Shown one piece after another: positions 187 through 6,480 of a DNA stretch of 6,480 nt (position 1 is the stretch's first letter; every line of letters starts with the position of its first letter). Under the pieces are notes generated by a model. The model was not told the origin of the DNA. It ran no database searches and worked only from the letters and a program-made list of their open reading frames with translations. The stretch comes from a virus (Duplodnaviria; Heunggongvirae; Uroviricota; Caudoviricetes): the IMG/VR virus record IMGVR_UViG_2537561716_000021. One strand, 5' to 3'. Both the position numbers and the translations under genes were made by a program.

Positions 187-2265
187 TTATTCCTCTGGGT
201 AAGCTGAGCTAATCAAGGTATCTTCCTGCATACGATTAATATGTGATGTTGTCCTTTCATCAATAACTTTCCCATCAAGTACCGTCTGAGTTGTGATATT
301 GATTGTCTGAGGCTGAATATTTACTGACGGCTTGATAAGCTTTAAATCTTGTGTGAATGTTTCCACTCGACCTTTCAGATTATTTAATGCTTCAGGTGAA
401 AACTGTGGAACATCTTTTGATTTGCCCTGAACCATAGCCCATAAAACAGTGGCTAAAGAGTTCATGTCACCAGTTAATGCTTGGTCTGTGGGTTCCACCT
501 TTGACCTTACAACTTTATCAATTGGATTATCTGACTTACTCATCTGACGTTCACAGAACGGTTTGACAATGGCATTAATCACATCAGTTGCCATACCGAC
601 AATCATTACTTTGGTAATTGCATCAGCTACAGATAGCCTACTTTTTCCACCTTCAACACTACCAGTAGAACGTGAATTGATTCTTCCTGCTGCTGTATTT
701 GCCACATTTCCAAGCGTGGAAATGGCCCTAATTAAGTTCCAGATACCACCTACAGCACCAATCCCAGACCTTACAGCGACTATACCAGCAAGCCCCTTTA
801 ATGCACTTAACAGGCCATTTGCAAGACCATCAGCTACAGCTTTTTGAGTGTCATTTAATTCTCTGTAAGCAAGGGTCACTCTGTCAAAGAATCCCTGCAC
901 TCGGTAGCTAATCGTGGTTAAGTCATCAATACCGTTTGACATGCTTTTCATCAGGTCGCCAAAATGTTCACCAAGATTTTTAGATTGACCACCCAGTGAA
1001 TTAAGTAAATTAGTCAGTGACCTTGTAAAGTCTGTTAAACCTTCCTGTGAACCGTCGAACATTAAGGCCAAATTATTATTCCATGAATTACTTAAGCGGC
1101 CTAACTGCGTCTGAGTAGAGTTAATAATCTTTTCCCATCCCCCAGCTTTAGCAATCATATTACCCATTTCAGCGGATACTTTAGGAAGAACATCTTTAGA
1201 AAGAACTTTACCGTTCTTCATAGCTGCATCTAATTGCTCGGTAGTCATCCCAAGACTTCTGGCAAATAACTGAAAAGCACCTGCCATTCTGTCCCCTAAC
1301 TGACCGCGTAATTCTTCAGCTTGAATCTTGCCCTTGCTCGCCATCTGCTCAAAAGCTTTTAAAATCCCGTTAATTTCATCGGTGCTTAAACCCATTAATC
1401 TGGATGTACCAATCACATTAGAAAATAAGGATTCTTTCTGGCCTGTATCCATATCACCAGCACCAGCGGAAAACTTAGCAAAACTGCTTAATGTTTCAAT
1501 CTGGTCAACACCAGTATTATTAGCAAGATTCTTAACAAATTCTGTAGCTCGTTTAGCACCTTCATCACCTAAAACGAATTGTGCCGCTCGTTGTGATGCT
1601 TCTTTTTTCAGACCAATCTCCATAATCTTCCTATAAGCTTCTAAGGCTGTCTGAAAACTATAAATGGCTGTACCTGCTTTGATTGCACTTGTAGCTAATA
1701 CATCCAGACCATTCGAAGCCTTTTCACTGTGATTGTTTTTGCTGGTGGTCTTGTTAAACTTAGAAAGTGTTTCACGTAGATTTTGATTTAACTTTGCTAA
1801 CTCACGATTAAAAGCTTCGTTTCCAAGTGTCTTGGATTTACTACTTAATGCGTAAAACTGACTCTTAATGTATTTCTCGACAATTGGGTTAAGACCTTTC
1901 AGCTTGGTCATATTCGCTGAATAAGCTGCTGTGATTGCTCTGTTGCCGCTAATTCGTGGCTGTCTTGATTGTTTTGGAGGATTAACAGTGTCATTAAATC
2001 TGGTGGCAAACTGAAATGCTTTTGTGCTTCTTGCTCTCTGTTCAATCTTGTCAAAGGCCTTATTAAACTTCCTTTCAAGCTGCCCTAAAGAAGCCGTTAA
2101 ATTGCTATCAAGCTGCTTTGTATTAATCCTGAAACCTTTATTTAGGTTCTTTTCAATTCTTTGTGCTGACTGCAAAGCTGCCTTTTCAACTCTTTGCAAG
2201 CCCTTAATAACGTTCTCGCTGAAGCCTAGCTCAACGATAAAACTATCAACTGTGAATTTGCTCAT
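187..2265 (-). CDS. phage tail tape measure protein (tape-measure domain family)
   Basis: 692-aa ORF from the track. ATG at 2265..2263 with GAGGTGA 9 nt upstream. Internal stretch KAFEQMASKGKIQAEELRGQLGDRMAGAFQLFARSLGMTTEQLDAAMKNGKV matches the conserved tape-measure domain motif as I recall it. Gly/Ala-rich hydrophobic segment GLANGLLSALKGLAGIVAVRSGIGAVGGIW and helical, K/E/Q-rich N-terminal third are typical of this family. Not verified by search. Confidence 0.75.
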   Translation of the reverse strand: MSKFTVDSFIVELGFSENVIKGLQRVEKAALQSAQRIEKNLNKGFRINTKQLDSNLTASLGQLERKFNKAFDKIEQRARSTKAFQFATRFNDTVNPPKQSRQPRISGNRAITAAYSANMTKLKGLNPIVEKYIKSQFYALSSKSKTLGNEAFNRELAKLNQNLRETLSKFNKTTSKNNHSEKASNGLDVLATSAIKAGTAIYSFQTALEAYRKIMEIGLKKEASQRAAQFVLGDEGAKRATEFVKNLANNTGVDQIETLSSFAKFSAGAGDMDTGQKESLFSNVIGTSRLMGLSTDEINGILKAFEQMASKGKIQAEELRGQLGDRMAGAFQLFARSLGMTTEQLDAAMKNGKVLSKDVLPKVSAEMGNMIAKAGGWEKIINSTQTQLGRLSNSWNNNLALMFDGSQEGLTDFTRSLTNLLNSLGGQSKNLGEHFGDLMKSMSNGIDDLTTISYRVQGFFDRVTLAYRELNDTQKAVADGLANGLLSALKGLAGIVAVRSGIGAVGGIWNLIRAISTLGNVANTAAGRINSRSTGSVEGGKSRLSVADAITKVMIVGMATDVINAIVKPFCERQMSKSDNPIDKVVRSKVEPTDQALTGDMNSLATVLWAMVQGKSKDVPQFSPEALNNLKGRVETFTQDLKLIKPSVNIQPQTINITTQTVLDGKVIDERTTSHINRMQEDTLISSAYPEE

Positions 2266-2277
2266 TCATATTTTTCA

Positions 2278-2317
2278 CCTCATAGACTTCGGATAGAAGG
2301 CTATCCTCATATACAAA
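2278..2317. repeat. ~36-bp hairpin-containing repeat, copy A (just upstream of the tape-measure gene start)
   Basis: ATAGACTTCGGATAGAAGGCTATCCTCATATA at 2282-2313 contains the hairpin GGATAG-aagg-CTATCC (2291-2306). Matches copy B with one mismatch in the loop, and flanking bases are also similar. Confidence 0.85.
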
Positions 2318-2357
2318 AAAGGAGAGTTACCCAGATTGCCATCCAGATAATCTCTCC
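2314..2357 (-). terminator. possible intrinsic terminator between the 72-aa gene and the tape-measure gene
   Basis: On the minus strand GGAGAG (2357..2352) and CTCTCC (2326..2321) form a 6-bp stem followed directly by TTTTTTG (2320..2314). The 25-nt loop is long for a classic terminator. Confidence 0.3.
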
Positions 2358-2373
2358 CGTAGATTTTTACTAA

Positions 2374-2592
2374 CTAACCAACAACTGATACCCAATGATA
2401 ATCACCATCTTCACGAATAATTCTTGAACCAACCGGAATACGGTCAATGCACCACGAAGGAATTTTGCGAATCTTTATTTTGCTGTTTGAGGTGACAGGC
2501 TGATGCTTACTCTTTACCGTTTTTGGTTTACGTGGTTGGTTTTTAAGTTTTTCACAAACTGCCTTGATAGTCTCTAAACGTTCTTCAAACAT
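2374..2592 (-). CDS. hypothetical small basic protein (72 aa)
   Basis: ORF from track. ATG preceded by AGAGGTGA. Starts 22 nt downstream of the 236-aa gene stop, so probably co-transcribed. Lys/Arg-rich N-terminal half. No recognisable motif. Confidence 0.5.
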   Translation of the reverse strand: MFEERLETIKAVCEKLKNQPRKPKTVKSKHQPVTSNSKIKIRKIPSWCIDRIPVGSRIIREDGDYHWVSVVG

Positions 2593-2614
2593 TAATCACC
2601 TCTTTAATTCATAA

Positions 2615-3325
2615 TCAAACAGCCTTGCTATACTTCTGAGAAATCTTCGTTAACTGCTCAATATCAGCCATTAAAGCAATCTTCTTCTGCGACTCATATT
2701 CACTAACAAGCTCTTTCATGCTATCAAGTTCTTTTCTAAGTTTTTGCTTTAACTTATCCAGTTTATCGGAGTAATGCTTAGTCAAATTAGCTTCAGCTAA
2801 CTGAAGAATCTCTTCATCTGTTTTACCAGTCATCAGAATAAATTGACCAGAACCCCTTAATGCTTGTCTGACATCAATTAACCGGAACCCTTCAGGGATA
2901 CTTTGAAGAACTTTAGGAACGTCTTCAATCGCTGTACCAAAACCATCATTAAAGTTTCCTTCATAATAGATAAACGGGTTTGACTTAATCTCGTAAGCAA
3001 TATCATATTCTGAAGGTTTCGAGGTTTCTTCGAAGTTCTTAACAGCATCGTAAGCAATATCAAGTCGAATACGTTGTTCTTTCAGCTGTGGGTAATATTT
3101 CTTTTCAAGCTCAAGTAATGCTTCACCCTTGCAAATATCAGGCATCTCTTGAGGTTCAGGAGCCACAAAGATGGTTGTTTTTGGTGACATCTTTAACTCT
3201 TGCTCAAGTGCAATTCTTTCATCGTGTTCTTTACGCTGAATAGCGATAGCTGGATGTTCAGTCTGTGGTGACCAGTCACCGAAGCTGTCAACCTTTTTAC
3301 CGTTAATATATAAATCGTTTGTCAT
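2615..3325 (-). CDS. hypothetical protein (236 aa) with Lys/Glu-rich, probably coiled-coil C-terminus
   Basis: Track ORF 2615..3370 begins at a GTG (3370..3368) with no ribosome-binding site. The internal ATG at 3325..3323 is preceded by GAAGAGGG at good spacing, so the start is trimmed to 3325. C-terminal ~60 residues (DKLDKLKQKLRKELDSMKELVSEYESQKK) look coiled-coil. No family recognised. Confidence 0.6.
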   Translation of the reverse strand: MTNDLYINGKKVDSFGDWSPQTEHPAIAIQRKEHDERIALEQELKMSPKTTIFVAPEPQEMPDICKGEALLELEKKYYPQLKEQRIRLDIAYDAVKNFEETSKPSEYDIAYEIKSNPFIYYEGNFNDGFGTAIEDVPKVLQSIPEGFRLIDVRQALRGSGQFILMTGKTDEEILQLAEANLTKHYSDKLDKLKQKLRKELDSMKELVSEYESQKKIALMADIEQLTKISQKYSKAV

Positions 3326-3347
3326 TGTTTTTCCCTCTTCTAAGTAA

Positions 3348-3437
3348 TATTCAGTTTTTAAAAAGCACACCTGACAGCCTACGAACTTAGAAGAGACTTA
3401 AAAGCGTTTGCCAAGTGTGCTTTTTAAAAACTGAATA
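3348..3437. repeat. perfect 23-bp inverted repeat (TATTCAGTTTTTAAAAAGCACAC) with 44-bp spacer
   Basis: Arms at 3348-3370 and 3415-3437 are exact reverse complements. Each arm contains TTTTTAAAAA. The left arm ends 22 nt upstream of the ATG at 3325 (minus-strand sense). Confidence 0.9.
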
Positions 3438-3530
3438 GCCCTAGATAATTTCTTATAAAGGGCCATTCATAAGGTGAAGAAATTAAAAGAACATCTAAAG
3501 GATTCAAATGAATGAACAAAGATTTTTGAT

Positions 3531-3562
3531 ATGGCCTATTTAGTGTGGGCTAAATAAGCCAT
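3531..3562. repeat. 13-bp near-perfect inverted repeat ATGGCCTATTTAG / CTAAATAAGCCAT with 6-nt loop
   Basis: Arms 3531-3543 and 3550-3562 with one mismatch. No adjacent T-run on either strand, so not a classic terminator. Confidence 0.7.
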
Positions 3563-3643
3563 GACGAAAAGCATTGCACCTTTCAGAATAACTATCCCTA
3601 GATGTAGATGGAATTGTTGAAAGAAATAAGAGAGAATTGCTCT

Positions 3644-3685
3644 CCCTATAGACTTCGGATAGAAGACTATCCTCATATATACAAT
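3644..3685. repeat. ~36-bp hairpin-containing repeat, copy B (in the long intergenic region)
   Basis: ATAGACTTCGGATAGAAGACTATCCTCATATA at 3648-3679 with hairpin GGATAG-aaga-CTATCC (3657-3672). Immediately preceded by the small hairpin GAGAG-aattg-CTCTC. Confidence 0.85.
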
Positions 3686-3736
3686 TATGTCATGCTCAAG
3701 GTTATTTGTCAACAGCTTTTTAACAGATTGGTAACA

Positions 3737-3814
3737 TCAATTCTTATTTACCGTATTACCTACCCAGCAACCAACCAATAAGCCAAGCAACGTCCAAGCA
3801 ATTATTAAACCCAT
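3737..3814 (-). CDS. possible 25-aa hydrophobic peptide (MGLIIAWTLLGLLVGCWVGNTVNKN), speculative
   Basis: ATG at 3814..3812 overlaps the TAA stop of the 109-aa gene (TAATG coupling). Hydrophobic stretch ends in a lipobox-like L-V-G-C. Below the track length threshold, and the N-region has no positive charge. Confidence 0.2.
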   Translation of the reverse strand: MGLIIAWTLLGLLVGCWVGNTVNKN

Positions 3815-4143
3815 TAGTGAATCCTCATAGAATCCGCAACCAAAACATTGTCAGCGTACAAAATTGTCACAGCACCTTTCAGAAATTGCTCTGGGCTGAC
3901 ACTAAGTTTGTTTGTCTGTTCGATAATCAATCTTTTCATGTTGCTGTCTTTAATTGGTAGCATCATTCGAGGCTCGTTAAACTCCACCGACTGAATAAAG
4001 TCAGAGATGTTTTCTGCATTATCAGCCATCAAAGCTAACAGCCGGTCAAAGTCAATGCTAATACCTGCATCAGTGAAGTGTTGAAGCATGGTCACTGTGT
4101 CGATATCAAGCATAATTTGTAATGGGAAGTTTAATTCTCTCAT
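3814..4143 (-). CDS. hypothetical acidic protein (109 aa)
   Basis: ORF from track. ATG at 4143 with AAGGAG upstream. Lies immediately downstream (minus-strand sense) of repeat copy 1. No motif recognised. Confidence 0.55.
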   Translation of the reverse strand: MRELNFPLQIMLDIDTVTMLQHFTDAGISIDFDRLLALMADNAENISDFIQSVEFNEPRMMLPIKDSNMKRLIIEQTNKLSVSPEQFLKGAVTILYADNVLVADSMRIH

Positions 4144-4173
4144 TTCTTAAAATCTCCTTTTTACCAGACCTCC

Positions 4174-4291
4174 TCAATCGCTCTGTAACGAGCTAAACAG
4201 TCTTTTTCAGGGGTAGCCTGTACAGTGGTATTACCCACCCTAAAATAGGGTAGTTTTTTGCGTTAGAATGCGATTGAGAGCGTCTGAGAAG
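4174..4291. repeat. bipartite intergenic repeat, copy 1
   Basis: Left flank TCAATCGCTCTGTAACGAG (4174-4192) and right flank AGAATGCGATTGAGAGCGTCT (4265-4285) are identical to copy 2. The 72-nt core is divergent and holds the hairpin ACCCTA-aaa-TAGGGT (4237-4251) followed by T6 (4254-4259). Confidence 0.85.
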
Positions 4292-4299
4292 CTGTTTTT

Positions 4300-4587
4300 C
4301 TAATTTCGCTTAAAGTCTCGGACTTGCATAAGGTTTTTTGGTCTGGTATCGGCTCTGTTACCATTTCGATGGATAATTTGCTTATTGGATTGATAGCCAT
4401 GATAAAGGAACCAGACAACATATTTCACATAGAATGTGTATCGACCTATATTAAATGTTTTGTTGCCGTAGTCGTCGGTATTTATCGTGACTGACTCCCC
4501 ATCAGACCAGCACAGGGAATCACTGGATTCATCATAGATAAGGTGTTCTGCAAAATATCTTCTAACATCTTCATGCCAAGGTTTCAT
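4300..4587 (-). CDS. HNH endonuclease (HNH_3 / homing-endonuclease-like, 95 aa)
   Basis: C-terminal IIHRNGNRADTRPKNLMQV fits the H-x-x-G-x-x-x-D-x-x-x-x-N-L HNH core. Preceding aromatic-rich block (YTFYVKYVVWFLYHGY) resembles the region upstream of the HNH motif in small phage HNH proteins. Strong GAGGAGG site. ATGA start/stop overlap with the upstream gene. Confidence 0.7.
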   Translation of the reverse strand: MKPWHEDVRRYFAEHLIYDESSDSLCWSDGESVTINTDDYGNKTFNIGRYTFYVKYVVWFLYHGYQSNKQIIHRNGNRADTRPKNLMQVRDFKRN

Positions 4588-4799
4588 AAAACCTCCTCAC
4601 CCCAATAACCTAATTCAATCTTATGACGTTCAAACCATTCCGGTTTAACTGCTGTTTTCAGTGTTTCATTTGGGCCAATGGCTTTAATGAAAATATCTTT
4701 TGAGTTATGGATGTCACCGAATCCGTTTCCTTTAATCAGGAGGTCGGAGATGTAGCGAATCATTTTATCTGTGTGGTATTCAAAGGTAATGCATAGCAT
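4584..4799 (-). CDS. hypothetical protein (71 aa)
   Basis: ORF from track. ATG overlaps the stop of the 93-aa gene (TAATG) and its own stop overlaps the HNH start (ATGA), i.e. translationally coupled. No motif recognised. Confidence 0.5.
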   Translation of the reverse strand: MLCITFEYHTDKMIRYISDLLIKGNGFGDIHNSKDIFIKAIGPNETLKTAVKPEWFERHKIELGYWGEEVL

Positions 4800-5080
4800 T
4801 AAACCCCCATCGATAGCTTGTGAATCTTGATGCTCAATAGCCGGGCAATATCAATTTTAAAGTTGTTCAGTTCCTTCAGAGTAGCTAGAGCGTTCTGAGT
4901 AATTCTGATGTGTCTGCGACCTTTAGAAACTGGATATTTCAGTAAATCCGACTCAGTGACCTCTTTAGCAATTGCAAGCTGCATAATGGTTTGATGAGGC
5001 AGGTTAGTTGTCTGTTTAATTCGGGTAAGCTCGTGAAAGGCTTCTTCTGAAATACGGGTTAATGTGTGTTTGTTTTTCAT
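4799..5080 (-). CDS. hypothetical protein (93 aa), possibly a small DNA-binding regulator
   Basis: Track ORF 4799..5164 overlaps the 184-aa gene by 83 nt. The internal ATG at 5080..5078 has GAGGA about 8 nt upstream and sits 1 nt after the 184-aa stop (TAAAATG), so the start is trimmed. Function is a guess. Confidence 0.5.
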   Translation of the reverse strand: MKNKHTLTRISEEAFHELTRIKQTTNLPHQTIMQLAIAKEVTESDLLKYPVSKGRRHIRITQNALATLKELNNFKIDIARLLSIKIHKLSMGV

Positions 5081-5081
5081 T

Positions 5082-5636
5082 TTAAAATTCCTCTGCTTGT
5101 GCGTATACGTCAAATTCAAAGTCTGGTTCACTGGTCGTAAGGCTAATATTGCCCACTTCCACATGATGATTGATTGTCTCGATAACTTTCATGCAAATGG
5201 TAGTTAAATTAGCGCAATATTTATCAGATGGTAGCTCGTAGCTAAGTCTGGTTGCTTGACGCTGTAGATAATTTGTTATTGTGCTTGAGCTAATCTTGTC
5301 AATATTTCGTAGTAAATAGAAAACTTTTTGGTGATAATTATCCCTTCCAAAACTGCGACAAGTACCGATAATTGCATCTTCAATTTTTGATGGTAATTGC
5401 TTGTAGCTGTCAAAACTCATCAAGAAAGGTTTCAAGTTATTCTTCGTTGTTTTGCGTACTGGCATAAATCTGTCTCGTGGCGTAATGCTACGAATGACCG
5501 CTTCAATGTTTTTACGTTCGGATTTGGTAAAGGCTGGGACTTCGTAGCTGGTGGGGTTGTTTGTGTAGCTGTAACCGTTGTGTCTGTTGCGTCTCTTGGA
5601 TTCTTCAAGAAACTTTTGAAATTCTCTGTCGTTCAT
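5082..5636 (-). CDS. hypothetical protein (184 aa), first gene of the HNH operon
   Basis: ORF from track. ATG at 5636. Preceded by a candidate sigma70-like promoter on the minus strand. No family recognised. Confidence 0.6.
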   Translation of the reverse strand: MNDREFQKFLEESKRRNRHNGYSYTNNPTSYEVPAFTKSERKNIEAVIRSITPRDRFMPVRKTTKNNLKPFLMSFDSYKQLPSKIEDAIIGTCRSFGRDNYHQKVFYLLRNIDKISSSTITNYLQRQATRLSYELPSDKYCANLTTICMKVIETINHHVEVGNISLTTSEPDFEFDVYAQAEEF

Positions 5637-5686
5637 TCATAAGCTGGCCCTTATAATTGTTAATTCTCTGTTAACTCATATATACA

Positions 5687-5715
5687 ATCCTAGCATTTTC
5701 AAAGGCTAATGTCAA
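5687..5715 (-). promoter_or_regulatory. candidate sigma70-type promoter for the 184/93/71/HNH operon
   Basis: Minus-strand TTGACA (5715..5710), 17-nt spacer, TAGGAT (5692..5687), about 50 nt upstream of the ATG at 5636. The -10 is weak. Confidence 0.4.
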
Positions 5716-5722
5716 GTATTTT

Positions 5723-5752
5723 TTAACATTTTATTAACATCTGTGGTATAAT
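5723..5752 (+). promoter_or_regulatory. candidate rightward promoter with extended -10 (TTAACA, 18 nt, TGgTATAAT)
   Basis: TTAACA at 5723-5728. TG at 5744-5745 followed by TATAAT at 5747-5752. Divergent from the operon promoter. Would transcribe repeat copy 2 and the small ORF at 5934. Confidence 0.5.
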
Positions 5753-5830
5753 GGGTTTATGGGGAGAGTAAAATATAAAGGCGTGGCCATGTATTTGGTC
5801 ACATGGTTATTGCATTGCACACAGACATCT

Positions 5831-5925
5831 TCAATCGCTCTGTAACGAGTTAAATGGCCTCTTCAGGTCAACTATAAGGTCAGGTACTTTTTTGTGTCAG
5901 AATGCGATTGAGAGCGTCTTACAAG
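5831..5925. repeat. bipartite intergenic repeat, copy 2
   Basis: Left flank 5831-5849 and right flank 5899-5919 are identical to copy 1. The 49-nt core is different but also ends in T6 (5888-5893). Confidence 0.85.
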
Positions 5926-5933
5926 GAAAACTA

Positions 5934-6110
5934 ATGGTAAATCTCCCTCAGGAATTGGGGTCACCTGATGTGTGGGCTGGTGGAGGTATTGGACTTATTG
6001 CAGGTCTGCTACTTCGCTACGTCCTCGTCAGGGTGCTTGTTGTCTTTAAACTGTTCGGTCGTACATGGACGCTTGACCTTAAGGATAACGACCATACAGA
6101 CCCCCGTTAA
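5934..6110 (+). CDS. possible small membrane protein (58 aa: MVNLPQELGSPDVWAGGGIGLIAGLLLRYVLVRVLVVFKLFGRTWTLDLKDNDHTDPR)
   Basis: Track ORF 5892..6110 begins with TTG. The ATG at 5934 has AAGGA 7 nt upstream. One clear hydrophobic helix (GIGLIAGLLLRYVLVRVLVVF). Lies in a GC-richer ~200-bp stretch between the AT-rich block and the IS end. Confidence 0.35.
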   Translation: MVNLPQELGSPDVWAGGGIGLIAGLLLRYVLVRVLVVFKLFGRTWTLDLKDNDHTDPR

Positions 6111-6142
6111 AATCCCTCCAAAACCCCCTGTACGAGATGGTA

Positions 6143-6480
6143 TGAACCGCCCCGGGTTTCCTGGAGAGTGTTTTATCTGTGAACTCAGGCTGCCAGATCA
6201 TCGTTTCCGATGGAAGCATAATAAGCTTTTTCTGCTTCTGCCGGAGGAGTATGGCCCAGCCTTCCCAGCAATCGTCGATTGTTATCCCAGTCCACCCACG
6301 TTAGTGTGGCCAGTTCCACTTCTGCCGGTTTTTCCAGCTCTTACGGTGTATTACCTCCGCTTTGTAAAGACCATTGATGCTCTCGCCATCGCGTTGTCAC
6401 GAGTCGCCTGTACTCCCTGTTGATGCCAGTAATCCGGCTTCTTTTAGTCGCTCCGTATAGGCCAGTGACACATACTGAGA
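6143..6480 (-). mobile_element. IS3-family insertion sequence, terminal part (IS629/IS1203-like as recalled), continuing past the window edge
   Basis: Terminal sequence TGAACCGCCCCGGGTTTCCTGGAGAG starts at 6143 and matches the IS629-group terminal inverted repeat as I remember it. Minus-strand translation from the window edge reads SQYVSLAYTERLKEAGLLASTGSTGDS and later ESINGLYKAEVIHRKSWKNR and AEVELATLTWVDW...GHTPPAEAEKAYYASIGNDDLAA, a DDE transposase OrfB C-terminus. Composition is visibly GC-richer than the rest. Confidence 0.7.
6185..6480 (-). pseudogene. IS3-family transposase OrfB, C-terminal portion, disrupted
   Basis: In the frame that encodes SQYVSLAYTERLKEAGLLASTGSTGDS there is an in-frame TGA at 6399..6397, exactly where the conserved YDNA motif should be. 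The conserved C-terminal tail is then in a different frame (shift near 6322-6327) and ends at TGA 6187..6185. Hand-translated. Confidence 0.5.

Follow-up and report, generated by a model that had tools for sequence, protein, structure and literature searches.

A Predicted Promoter and Structured Leader RNA with a Shine-Dalgarno-complementary Hairpin Loop in a Satellite-like Island of Escherichia coli

Introduction

What is the role of a 488-bp gap, dense in inverted repeats, between two genes of a phage-like element? The gap occupies positions 3326-3813 of a 6,480-nucleotide stretch of DNA filed as a virus of the Caudoviricetes (IMG/VR record IMGVR_UViG_2537561716_000021), the whole of which is referred to here as the window. 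It is flanked by a gene for a 109-aa protein and by a gene for a 236-aa protein (2615-3325, minus strand). A preliminary description of the sequence set the limits of the stretch at 3438 and 3813; the right limit stands, but the true gap between the annotated genes begins at 3326, and the largest inverted repeat (3348-3376/3409-3437, arms of 29 nt) is situated immediately to the left of 3438. The stretch had been taken for a functional noncoding locus, such as an origin, a packaging site, or a small RNA, of a compact phage-like genome. Its context is instead a chromosomal island of Escherichia coli, and the best explanation of the stretch is that it forms the expression-control region of the block of genes starting with the 236-aa gene. 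With a probability of about 0.6, a promoter and a structured mRNA leader provide control after initiation, through translational repression and, in most relatives, attenuation.

Hairpin I and the Ribosome-binding Site

The minus strand at 3437-3348 folds into a long hairpin, termed hairpin I, with a near-perfect 29-bp stem (3437-3409 paired with 3376-3348; inverted repeat I1, 93% complementary) and a 32-nt loop. The minimum free energy is -42.9 kcal/mol (z -6.4) on the minus strand compared with -35.5 on the plus strand. The apical loop carries the segment CTCTTCTAAGT (3395-3385, minus strand), which is complementary over 11 nt and at 100% (repeat I4) to the Shine-Dalgarno (SD) region of the 236-aa gene, ACTTAGAAGAG(GG) at 3345-3335 on the same strand. 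The SD sequence ACTTAGAAGAGGG lies 5 nt after the hairpin I stem, and the ATG of the 236-aa gene follows at 3325-3323. The loop-SD duplex has a calculated energy of -16.2 kcal/mol compared with -8.0 ± 2.4 kcal/mol for shuffled loops. Near-perfect RNA duplexes of more than 20 bp are substrates of RNase III, and the hairpin I stem is of this kind (about 20 bp or more of near-perfect double-stranded RNA); the cleavage itself is a prediction.

The arrangement was followed through 110 relatives collected from E. coli genomes, IMG/VR, and metagenomes. The -35 element was a selection criterion for these relatives (regular expression TTGACAA[AC][TC]AA), and its constancy is therefore not independent evidence; the motif-based scans selected on the invariant 20-mer described below, and the same holds for the constancy of the 20-mer in those loci. 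Neither the -10 element nor the downstream hairpin I was selected on, and a set of 11 aligned loci was found by similarity to the whole region. Pairing of hairpin I was scored wherever the position of the start codon could be assigned, which was so for 102 loci (76 distinct modules). MAFFT set the hairpin I types out of register, and complementarity was measured per sequence instead of by formal pair counting.

In the 102 relatives the stem of hairpin I has 19-32 bp (median 27) and is built from five unrelated sequences. The complementarity between loop and SD is found in 102/102, spans 8-13 contiguous nt (median 12), and ends 1-11 nt before the ATG. Shuffled loops reach a mean of 6.1 nt, with 9 nt or more in 4.7% of trials. 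There are two SD classes, each with a matching loop, as CTCTTCTAAG occurs with CTTAGAAGAG or CTTAGAGGA and TTCACCTC occurs with GAGGTGAA. Single-sided changes in loop or SD convert G-C to G-U pairs and keep the pairing. The hairpin and the SD recombine as one cassette with two different alleles of the downstream gene. The sense strand of hairpin I is the more stable one in 48 of 53 variants.

Folding and Conservation of the Leader

The density of palindromes that had drawn attention to the stretch is real and local, as shuffle controls and a scan with 180-nt windows place the folding well beyond chance. The 363-nt leader (3678-3316) folds at -113 kcal/mol compared with -71 ± 4.8 kcal/mol for dinucleotide shuffles (z -8.9), and the opposite, plus strand has a z of -7.5. 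When the whole window is scanned in sliding segments of 180 nt, the only outliers are 3331-3510 (z -7.4), 3421-3600 (z -4.4), and 3511-3690 (z -4.2), all others lying between -3.1 and +1.9. The description of the stretch as palindrome-dense holds for its left part, whereas the rightmost 130 bp are nonpalindromic and contain a 25-aa open reading frame (ORF) and the promoter. Every inverted repeat that had been listed is present at, or within 1-2 bases of, the place given for it, among them GCCCT 3438-3442/AGGGC 3459-3463 and ATGGCCTATTTAG 3531-3543/CTAAATAAGCCAT 3550-3562, the latter being part of a 27-nt imperfect repeat (3517-3543/3550-3576).

The absence of any ORF of at least 60 aa from 3438-3813 is likewise borne out. 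The longest ORFs overlapping this segment have 58 aa (3536-3712, minus strand, TTG start) and 57 aa (3608-3781, plus strand), and in the relatives the longest ORFs of the leader reach a median of 35 aa and show no conservation. The spacers of the leader carry indels of 2, 4, 25, and 27 nt, which rule out a reading frame. A protein-coding leader was accordingly rejected, the ORFs being short and unconserved and any frame being broken by the indels.

Conservation across related genomes had been proposed as a check, and the promoter, the 20-mer, and the arms of the long hairpin exceed both flanking genes in this respect. Among the 11 aligned loci the mean pairwise identity is 0.94 for the promoter block (-50 to -7), 0.97 for the 20-mer, 0.94 and 0.84 for the two arms of the long hairpin, and 0.80-0.97 for the regulatory blocks overall, compared with 0.60-0.68 for the two flanking genes. 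The proposal of a functional noncoding locus is thus upheld as to function, with blocks better conserved than the flanking genes, and the locus is mostly but not wholly noncoding, since 3737-3814 encodes a conserved 25-aa peptide.

The Promoter and the Predicted 5' End of the Transcript

A sigma-70 promoter is located on the minus strand at 3684-3745, with the -35 element TTGACA (3712-3707), a 17-nt spacer, and the TG-extended -10 element CATAAT (3689-3684). The segment 3712-3684 is the best match in the window (11/12, with TG). The -10 element of the 110 relatives reads CATAAT in 91, GATGAT in 18, and GAAGAT in one, and is always preceded by the TG extension. A paralogous copy of the promoter is situated at 5741-5687, within a longer direct repeat (3672-3738, resembling 5675-5741). 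The plus strand of 3326-3813 yielded no promoter-like site. The predicted start of transcription is at about 3676-3678. Ahead of both promoter copies (3713-3745 and 5716-5741, minus strand) are TGTTRA motifs at 11-bp intervals, the last of which merges with the -35 element, and in both copies an A-tract abuts the -35 element (AAAAAG at the 3712-3684 promoter). The repeats together with the A-tract could serve as an UP element or as an operator for a regulator of the island.

Directly downstream is a 27-nt insertion (3648-3674, minus strand) that is predicted to fold into a 5'-terminal hairpin (GGATAG 3672-3667/CTATCC 3662-3657). It copies the leader hairpin that precedes the tape-measure gene at 2270-2318 (direct repeat D2, 84% identity; the copy here spans 3636-3684) and is found in only 18 of the 110 relatives, this window included. 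The insertion is followed by a stem-loop with the sequence AGGGAGAG-CAATT-CTCTCT at 3629-3647 (minus strand), the third of the inverted repeats noted earlier (GGGAGAG/CTCTCT). With the 27-nt insert computationally removed in its 18 carriers, this stem-loop begins 3-11 nt (mostly 6-10 nt) after the -10 element throughout the 110 relatives. The stem varies in a compensating manner between GGGAGAG/CTCTCT, GGGAAGAG/CTCTTCC, AGGAAGAG/TTTTTCCT, AGAGAGA/TCTCTCT, and GAGGAGAG/CTCCTT. Its tail is U-rich in this window and in only some of the relatives. It is probably a stabilizer of the 5' end of the transcript.

Two other assignments for this area were considered and rejected. A simple scan flagged the 5' hairpin as a terminator, but it is positioned at the start of the transcript, and many relatives lack a U-rich tail at this hairpin. 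A resemblance to a T7-like promoter (TATAGGGAGA at 3650-3640) was dismissed by eye, as the upstream 13 nt mismatch, and the TAT comes from the 27-nt insertion, which is absent in most relatives.

The Invariant 20-mer, Hairpin F, and the Leader Terminators

An invariant 20-mer, GAAAGGTGCAATGCTTTTCG (3584-3565, minus strand), follows an indel-rich spacer and overlaps the next hairpin of the leader, termed hairpin F. It is unchanged in the 11 aligned loci, occurs once per island, and gives only chance matches when compared with phages. Two alternative folds are available to it, one on itself (GAAAGG/CUUUUC) and one in which its 3' half supplies the lower stem of hairpin F. Hairpin F (3576-3517, minus strand) is composed of this lower stem, formed by GCTTTTCG/CGAAAAGT in relatives and weakened in this window, and a 13-bp upper stem (3562-3550/3543-3531). 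In 17 sequences its 18 pairs are 97% paired, with the upper helix 100% paired; two pairs change on both sides and G-U pairs are numerous. The upper stem falls into at least four sequence types among 46 variants, all of which stay paired, and of the two strands of hairpin F the sense strand gives the more stable fold in 35 of 40 variants. The 20-mer with its type-variable neighbor is a candidate for a sensing or antitermination element. A T4 MotA-box middle promoter in the 20-mer was also tried and rejected, there being no conserved -10 element at the right distance.

Between hairpin F and hairpin I lies hairpin H (AGCCCT...AGGGCT, 3464-3438, minus strand), which folds at -12.3 kcal/mol. It is present in 100 of 103 leaders, and in 81 of those 100 at least 5 of the next 6 nt are T. 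In this window the U-run is broken (AGGGC-TATTCAG), as it belongs to a set of 15 leaders with TATTCAG. A canonical terminator, T1 (GCCCTAA...TTAGGGC followed by a T-run), stands upstream of H in 66/103 leaders and is absent from the window. No intrinsic terminator is thus recognized in the leader of this window, where H runs into TATTCAG and the hairpin that does have a U-rich tail, the 5' hairpin, is at the start of the transcript.

An extra module of about 120 nt lies between F and H in the loci L012, L014, L016, and L017 and in 62 other relatives, and the window is without it. The module holds the canonical terminator (GCCCTAATCATGAGTTAGGGC with a T-run) and a conserved AAAGAAAGTTTTTCCTGAAACTTCGTTAACG segment. 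Leader modules appear to be shuffled freely between islands.

Proposed Mechanism and Alternatives

In the proposed sequence of events, the strong, near-consensus sigma-70 promoter, constitutive in appearance, would fire at about 3677 on the minus strand, and the transcript would begin with one or two terminal hairpins that probably act as stabilizers. An untranslated leader of about 350 nt would then carry the 20-mer, hairpin F, and the terminator-like hairpin H, and in most members of the family one or two leader terminators would stop much of the transcription before the 236-aa gene. In transcripts that read through, the loop of hairpin I (11-12 nt) would mask the ribosome-binding site of the 236-aa gene and block its translation unless the pairing is prevented or the hairpin removed. 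Expression of the 236-aa gene, and probably also of the 72-aa, tape-measure, and baseplate genes that lie co-oriented downstream of it, is expected to stay low until a signal, plausibly infection by a helper phage, relieves the termination, the SD masking, or both. Cleavage of the stem by RNase III is one option and would remove the mask and activate translation; in another, the excised hairpin would act in trans, like the P4 CI RNA and the P1 c4 RNA.

Several points weigh against this combination of attenuation and translational repression. The terminators are absent (T1) or degenerate (H) in the window, and attenuation may not operate here. The role of the 20-mer is left unexplained. The covariation of SD and anti-SD amounts to approximately two fully independent sequence classes only. 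In the outer stem of hairpin I, G-U and A-C combinations are balanced (36 compared with 40), so that the strand asymmetry must come mainly from the inner stem and the loops. With the 29-bp stem and 5-nt linker of this window, forming the stem and the loop-SD helix at the same time within a single molecule would be sterically tight, although not impossible, and the pairing may depend on processing or take place from one molecule to another. Finally, the transcription start, the integrity of the leader, and any processing are predictions from sequence, and so are the mode of pairing (cis or trans), cleavage of the 29-bp stem by RNase III, and the signal for induction.

The tight geometry is also an argument for a different use of the same hairpin, in which hairpin I is cut from the leader, for example by RNase III, and binds as an antisense RNA to the SD of other transcripts, giving an immunity like that of P4 CI or P1 c4 with the five hairpin types as different specificities. 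Such a trans-acting RNA is possible but distinctly less probable than control in cis. The constitutive type of promoter, a structured RNA encoded in the leader, and complementarity to a downstream ribosome-binding site on the same transcript are all expected of it; the hairpins fall into discrete types inherited with their SD as a cassette, and P4 CI RNA and IsrK offer precedents (PMC4825925). Immunity would predict that co-resident islands avoid sharing a type, and no sign of such exclusion is seen, since some genomes carry two or three islands of the same type, with type A at 199 places in 188 genomes and type C at 237 places in 230 genomes. As the SD classes number only about two, cross-reaction would be expected between many of the types, and no match to C4 or another Rfam family was obtained. 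Of the three functions suggested in the preliminary description, a small RNA nevertheless comes closest, and one derived from the leader is possible, but the anatomy is that of a promoter followed by a long 5' leader that would regulate the 236-aa gene in cis.

A more elaborate version, which we hold to be slightly less probable still, makes the leader an RNA control or immunity module of undescribed E. coli satellites, with the hairpin acting in trans, five specificities, and the 20-mer as a sensor. The satellites would in that case possibly be parasites of Felix O1-like virulent phages. The excised hairpin would act on the ribosome-binding site of the gene launching the tail-gene block, and a factor from the helper phage or the host would use the 20-mer to switch on the island.

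The 20-mer and hairpin F can alternatively be viewed as the signal for processive antitermination, corresponding to boxA and boxB or to the put RNA of HK022, at which a host and/or phage factor is loaded on RNA polymerase to allow read-through of the leader terminators. In boxA and boxB a constant linear element adjoins a hairpin that varies, and an invariant element beside a hairpin of several types is what is seen here, occurring once per island between the promoter and the terminators (which are found in 64-81% of relatives). However, by eye TGCTTTTCG only partly matches the boxA consensus CGCTCTTA/TGCTCTTTAACAA, and hairpin F is oversized, with a stem of 10-13 bp and a loop of 6-11 nt compared with the 5 bp and pentaloop of boxB. 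Scans against Pfam, PHROG, and NCBIfam gave no N-like or Q-like protein, and the window itself has no convincing terminator to be read through. As a full account of the stretch antitermination is doubtful, on a par with the simpler trans-acting RNA; it is compatible with the preferred leader mechanism as the upstream half of it.

Far less probable is a site that functions at the DNA level, that is, an origin, a pac or cos packaging site, or a target for recombination or a nuclease, with the palindromes as cruciforms or protein-binding sites. The inverted repeats are dense and conserved and fold on both strands (z -8.9 and -7.5), and the island, which also encodes HNH endonucleases, needs an origin and a packaging signal somewhere. 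Iterons, repeat arrays, and DnaA boxes are nevertheless missing from the stretch; only short two-copy direct repeats occur in 3326-3813, no DnaA box is found at up to one mismatch, and the G+C content of 0.32-0.37 is not far below the 0.38 of the island, as judged in a check for an AT-rich origin element. A replication origin, as had been suggested, was rejected on these grounds, and there is no indication of a packaging site. In the nested repeat the second arm always coincides with the SD, at 1-11 nt before the ATG, and changes when the SD changes, a constraint not needed by a site acting as DNA; G-U pairs are tolerated in the stems; and the whole arrangement follows a strong promoter immediately and shares its orientation. 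As one arm is always kept on the ribosome-binding site and the sense strand is the more stable one in both hairpin I and hairpin F, RNA rather than DNA is taken to be the active form.

Least probable of all is classical attenuation by a leader peptide, with the 20-mer as ribosome-binding site and start (AAGGTG-CA-ATG, encoding MLF...) and translation into hairpin F setting the fate of the downstream terminators: an SD-like AAGGTG and an ATG do fall inside the invariant block and the ORF enters the lower stem of hairpin F, but the distance from AGGTG to ATG is only 2 nt compared with 7-8 nt in the island genes, and the ORF varies from 5 to 30 codons with nothing conserved past MLF.

Comparison with Known Systems

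Attenuation and SD masking, the preferred mechanism, belong to a known kind of control. For the element itself no homologue has been described, and its type-by-type compensation is unusually clear. An Rfam search had been proposed as a check, and cmscan of the window and five relatives (E ≤ 1) returned no match to C4, a phage RNA, or any other family. The sole exception was the long hairpin, which was paired with the plant microRNA precursor MIR9563 in L012 (4105-4193, plus strand) at 32 bits for a gathering score of 90; the match is spurious, of the sort that any long perfect hairpin attracts.

The closest parallel in cis is with leaders that sequester the SD, such as translational operators and the platforms of riboswitches and thermometers. 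These share with the present leader a structured 5' untranslated region and an upstream mRNA segment that is complementary to the SD and covaries with it, whereas the anti-SD here is placed in the apical loop of a 19-32-bp hairpin and not in a simple local helix. The pairing of 11-12 bp is far too stable for an RNA thermometer, and in contrast to riboswitches there is no recognizable ligand-binding fold and no Rfam match.

The P4 CI RNA (seqA/seqB/seqC) and the c4 RNA of P1/P7 are similar in that a mobile element uses a constitutive promoter to make a leader RNA complementary to downstream sites, including a ribosome-binding site. The present leader has the same feature, being encoded behind the 3712-3684 promoter with a loop complementary to the downstream SD in all 102 relatives. 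The c4 antisense RNA of P1/P7 has the same arrangement as the P4 CI RNA, with specificity types that differ by matched changes. The leader-encoded P4 CI RNA is complementary to sites on the same transcript and likewise has specificity types set by matched changes (PMC4825925). Unlike members of the C4 family, the element described here does not match the C4 model in sequence or structure, has one complementary segment instead of two, is a long straight hairpin and not a tRNA-like substrate of RNase P, and shows no sign of type exclusion between islands.

In the IsrK leader of the Salmonella prophage Gifsy-1, one promoter gives rise to a short terminated RNA and a translationally inactive read-through mRNA, alternative leader structures decide downstream translation, and IsrK activates in trans (PMC4825925). 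The similarity is that of a horizontally acquired element with leader control of a downstream gene. The differences are that the SD complementarity here would repress, that there is no sequence similarity, and that the terminator of the window is degenerate.

The nut sites of lambda resemble the 20-mer and hairpin F in having a conserved linear element beside a hairpin that is variable among relatives, upstream of terminators. The leader of the lambda N gene also contains a long hairpin, processed by RNase III, next to the ribosome-binding site, and hairpin I is comparable as a long leader hairpin of a size cut by RNase III beside a ribosome-binding site, cleavage being only a prediction in the present case. 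A lambdoid nut site is not what is found, however, as the match to boxA is partial, the hairpin far exceeds boxB in size, and an N-like protein was not detected in the Pfam, PHROG, or NCBIfam scans.

If the leader works as proposed, a satellite-like island would keep a module of tail genes silent behind a strong promoter of the housekeeping type. The invariant 20-mer, the type-variable hairpin, and the anti-SD hairpin would then constitute a compact and tractable switch, and the element would add a new RNA family to the catalogue.

The Island and Its Distribution

Over positions 2300-4400 the window shows 100% identity with chromosomal DNA of several E. coli O157:H7 strains. In strain E32511 it sits in an insertion of about 13 kb that splits yecE. 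The island extends over 187-6138 of the window and over 15342-28979 of L001, has a G+C content of about 38%, and has all of its genes in the window on the minus strand except for the insertion sequence. In E32511 it starts with a 507-aa large serine recombinase, followed by genes annotated as baseplate and tape measure, a run of small unknown genes, and an HNH endonuclease, and ends with an IS3-family element. This element (IS629/IS1203, window 6139-6480) truncates the island at that end, where the RefSeq annotation of E32511 has a partial HNH endonuclease gene adjoining it.

Related islands were found in 478 of 5426 complete E. coli genomes (about 9%, or 1 in 11), usually inserted between tonB and yciI. 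In a genome-wide 17-mer scan the sole real match outside Escherichia is one Citrobacter contig, other matches being mostly chance, and the stretch has no DNA match in phage or plasmid collections. The 3326-3813 stretch carries no annotated feature in any E. coli island copy.

The tape-measure protein is a genuine family member (Pfam TMP_3, PHROG 4036), and among phages it is closest, with about 29% identity along its full length, to proteins of the Felix O1-like myoviruses of Escherichia and Salmonella. The genomes of Felix O1-like myoviruses have a G+C content about as low as that of the island. No capsid or terminase gene is present in the parts of the island seen. The island, with its serine recombinase, its tape measure distantly related to those of Felix O1-like phages, and its baseplate gene, looks like a small mobile element resembling a phage satellite, and appears to be of a type that fits none of the described satellite families; literature searches found no published description of it.

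The 236-aa protein has more than 3000 homologues, nearly all in Escherichia and Shigella. Neither the protein nor its homologues match a family in Pfam, PHROGs, or NCBIfam, and the protein has no tblastn match in phages. Homologues are often labeled as transposases in RefSeq and nr with domain support absent, and the label looks unsupported. In different strains the 236-aa gene has two quite different N-terminal alleles behind the same leader.

A Micro-protein Gene and Other Features

At the upstream end of the gap the minus strand contains a gene for a hydrophobic micro-protein of 25 aa, MGLIIAWTLLGLLVGCWVGNTVNKN (3814-3737). Its ATG overlaps the TAA that ends the 109-aa gene (TAATG), and 7 nt upstream is the Shine-Dalgarno sequence GAGGA. 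An intact ORF of 21 or 25 aa with the TAATG overlap and the SD is found in 105 of the 106 related loci that have enough upstream sequence; the variants comprise 41 different peptides, all of them hydrophobic. The segment 3814-3737 is thus a real gene that is unannotated in RefSeq. It would encode a membrane peptide, be translationally coupled, and end the upstream operon. A type I toxin-antitoxin arrangement is not what is found, as translation of the 25-aa ORF would be linked to the preceding gene through the TAATG overlap, the ORF precedes the promoter, and no plus-strand promoter-like site accompanies it in 3326-3813. A stretch of about 490 bp that is unannotated in all of these E. coli genomes holds both an overlooked micro-protein gene and leader blocks that outlast the neighboring genes in conservation.

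The window contains no transfer RNA or transfer-messenger RNA genes. The gap before the tape-measure gene (2266-2373, minus strand) has a terminator-like GGGAGAG...CTCTCC hairpin with a T6 run, after which a GGATAG-NCTT-CTATCC hairpin, as inserted in the leader studied here, is placed directly before a GAGGTG SD. Just upstream of the SD of the 109-aa gene is an inverted repeat (4165-4190/4261-4286) with 26-nt arms that are 77% complementary and a 70-nt loop, and a copy of 83-88% identity occurs at 5822-5863/5883-5925, upstream of the other promoter copy. The repeat at 4165-4286 has no obvious anti-SD in its loop and an unremarkable folding z of -1.9, and it may be another leader hairpin of the same style.

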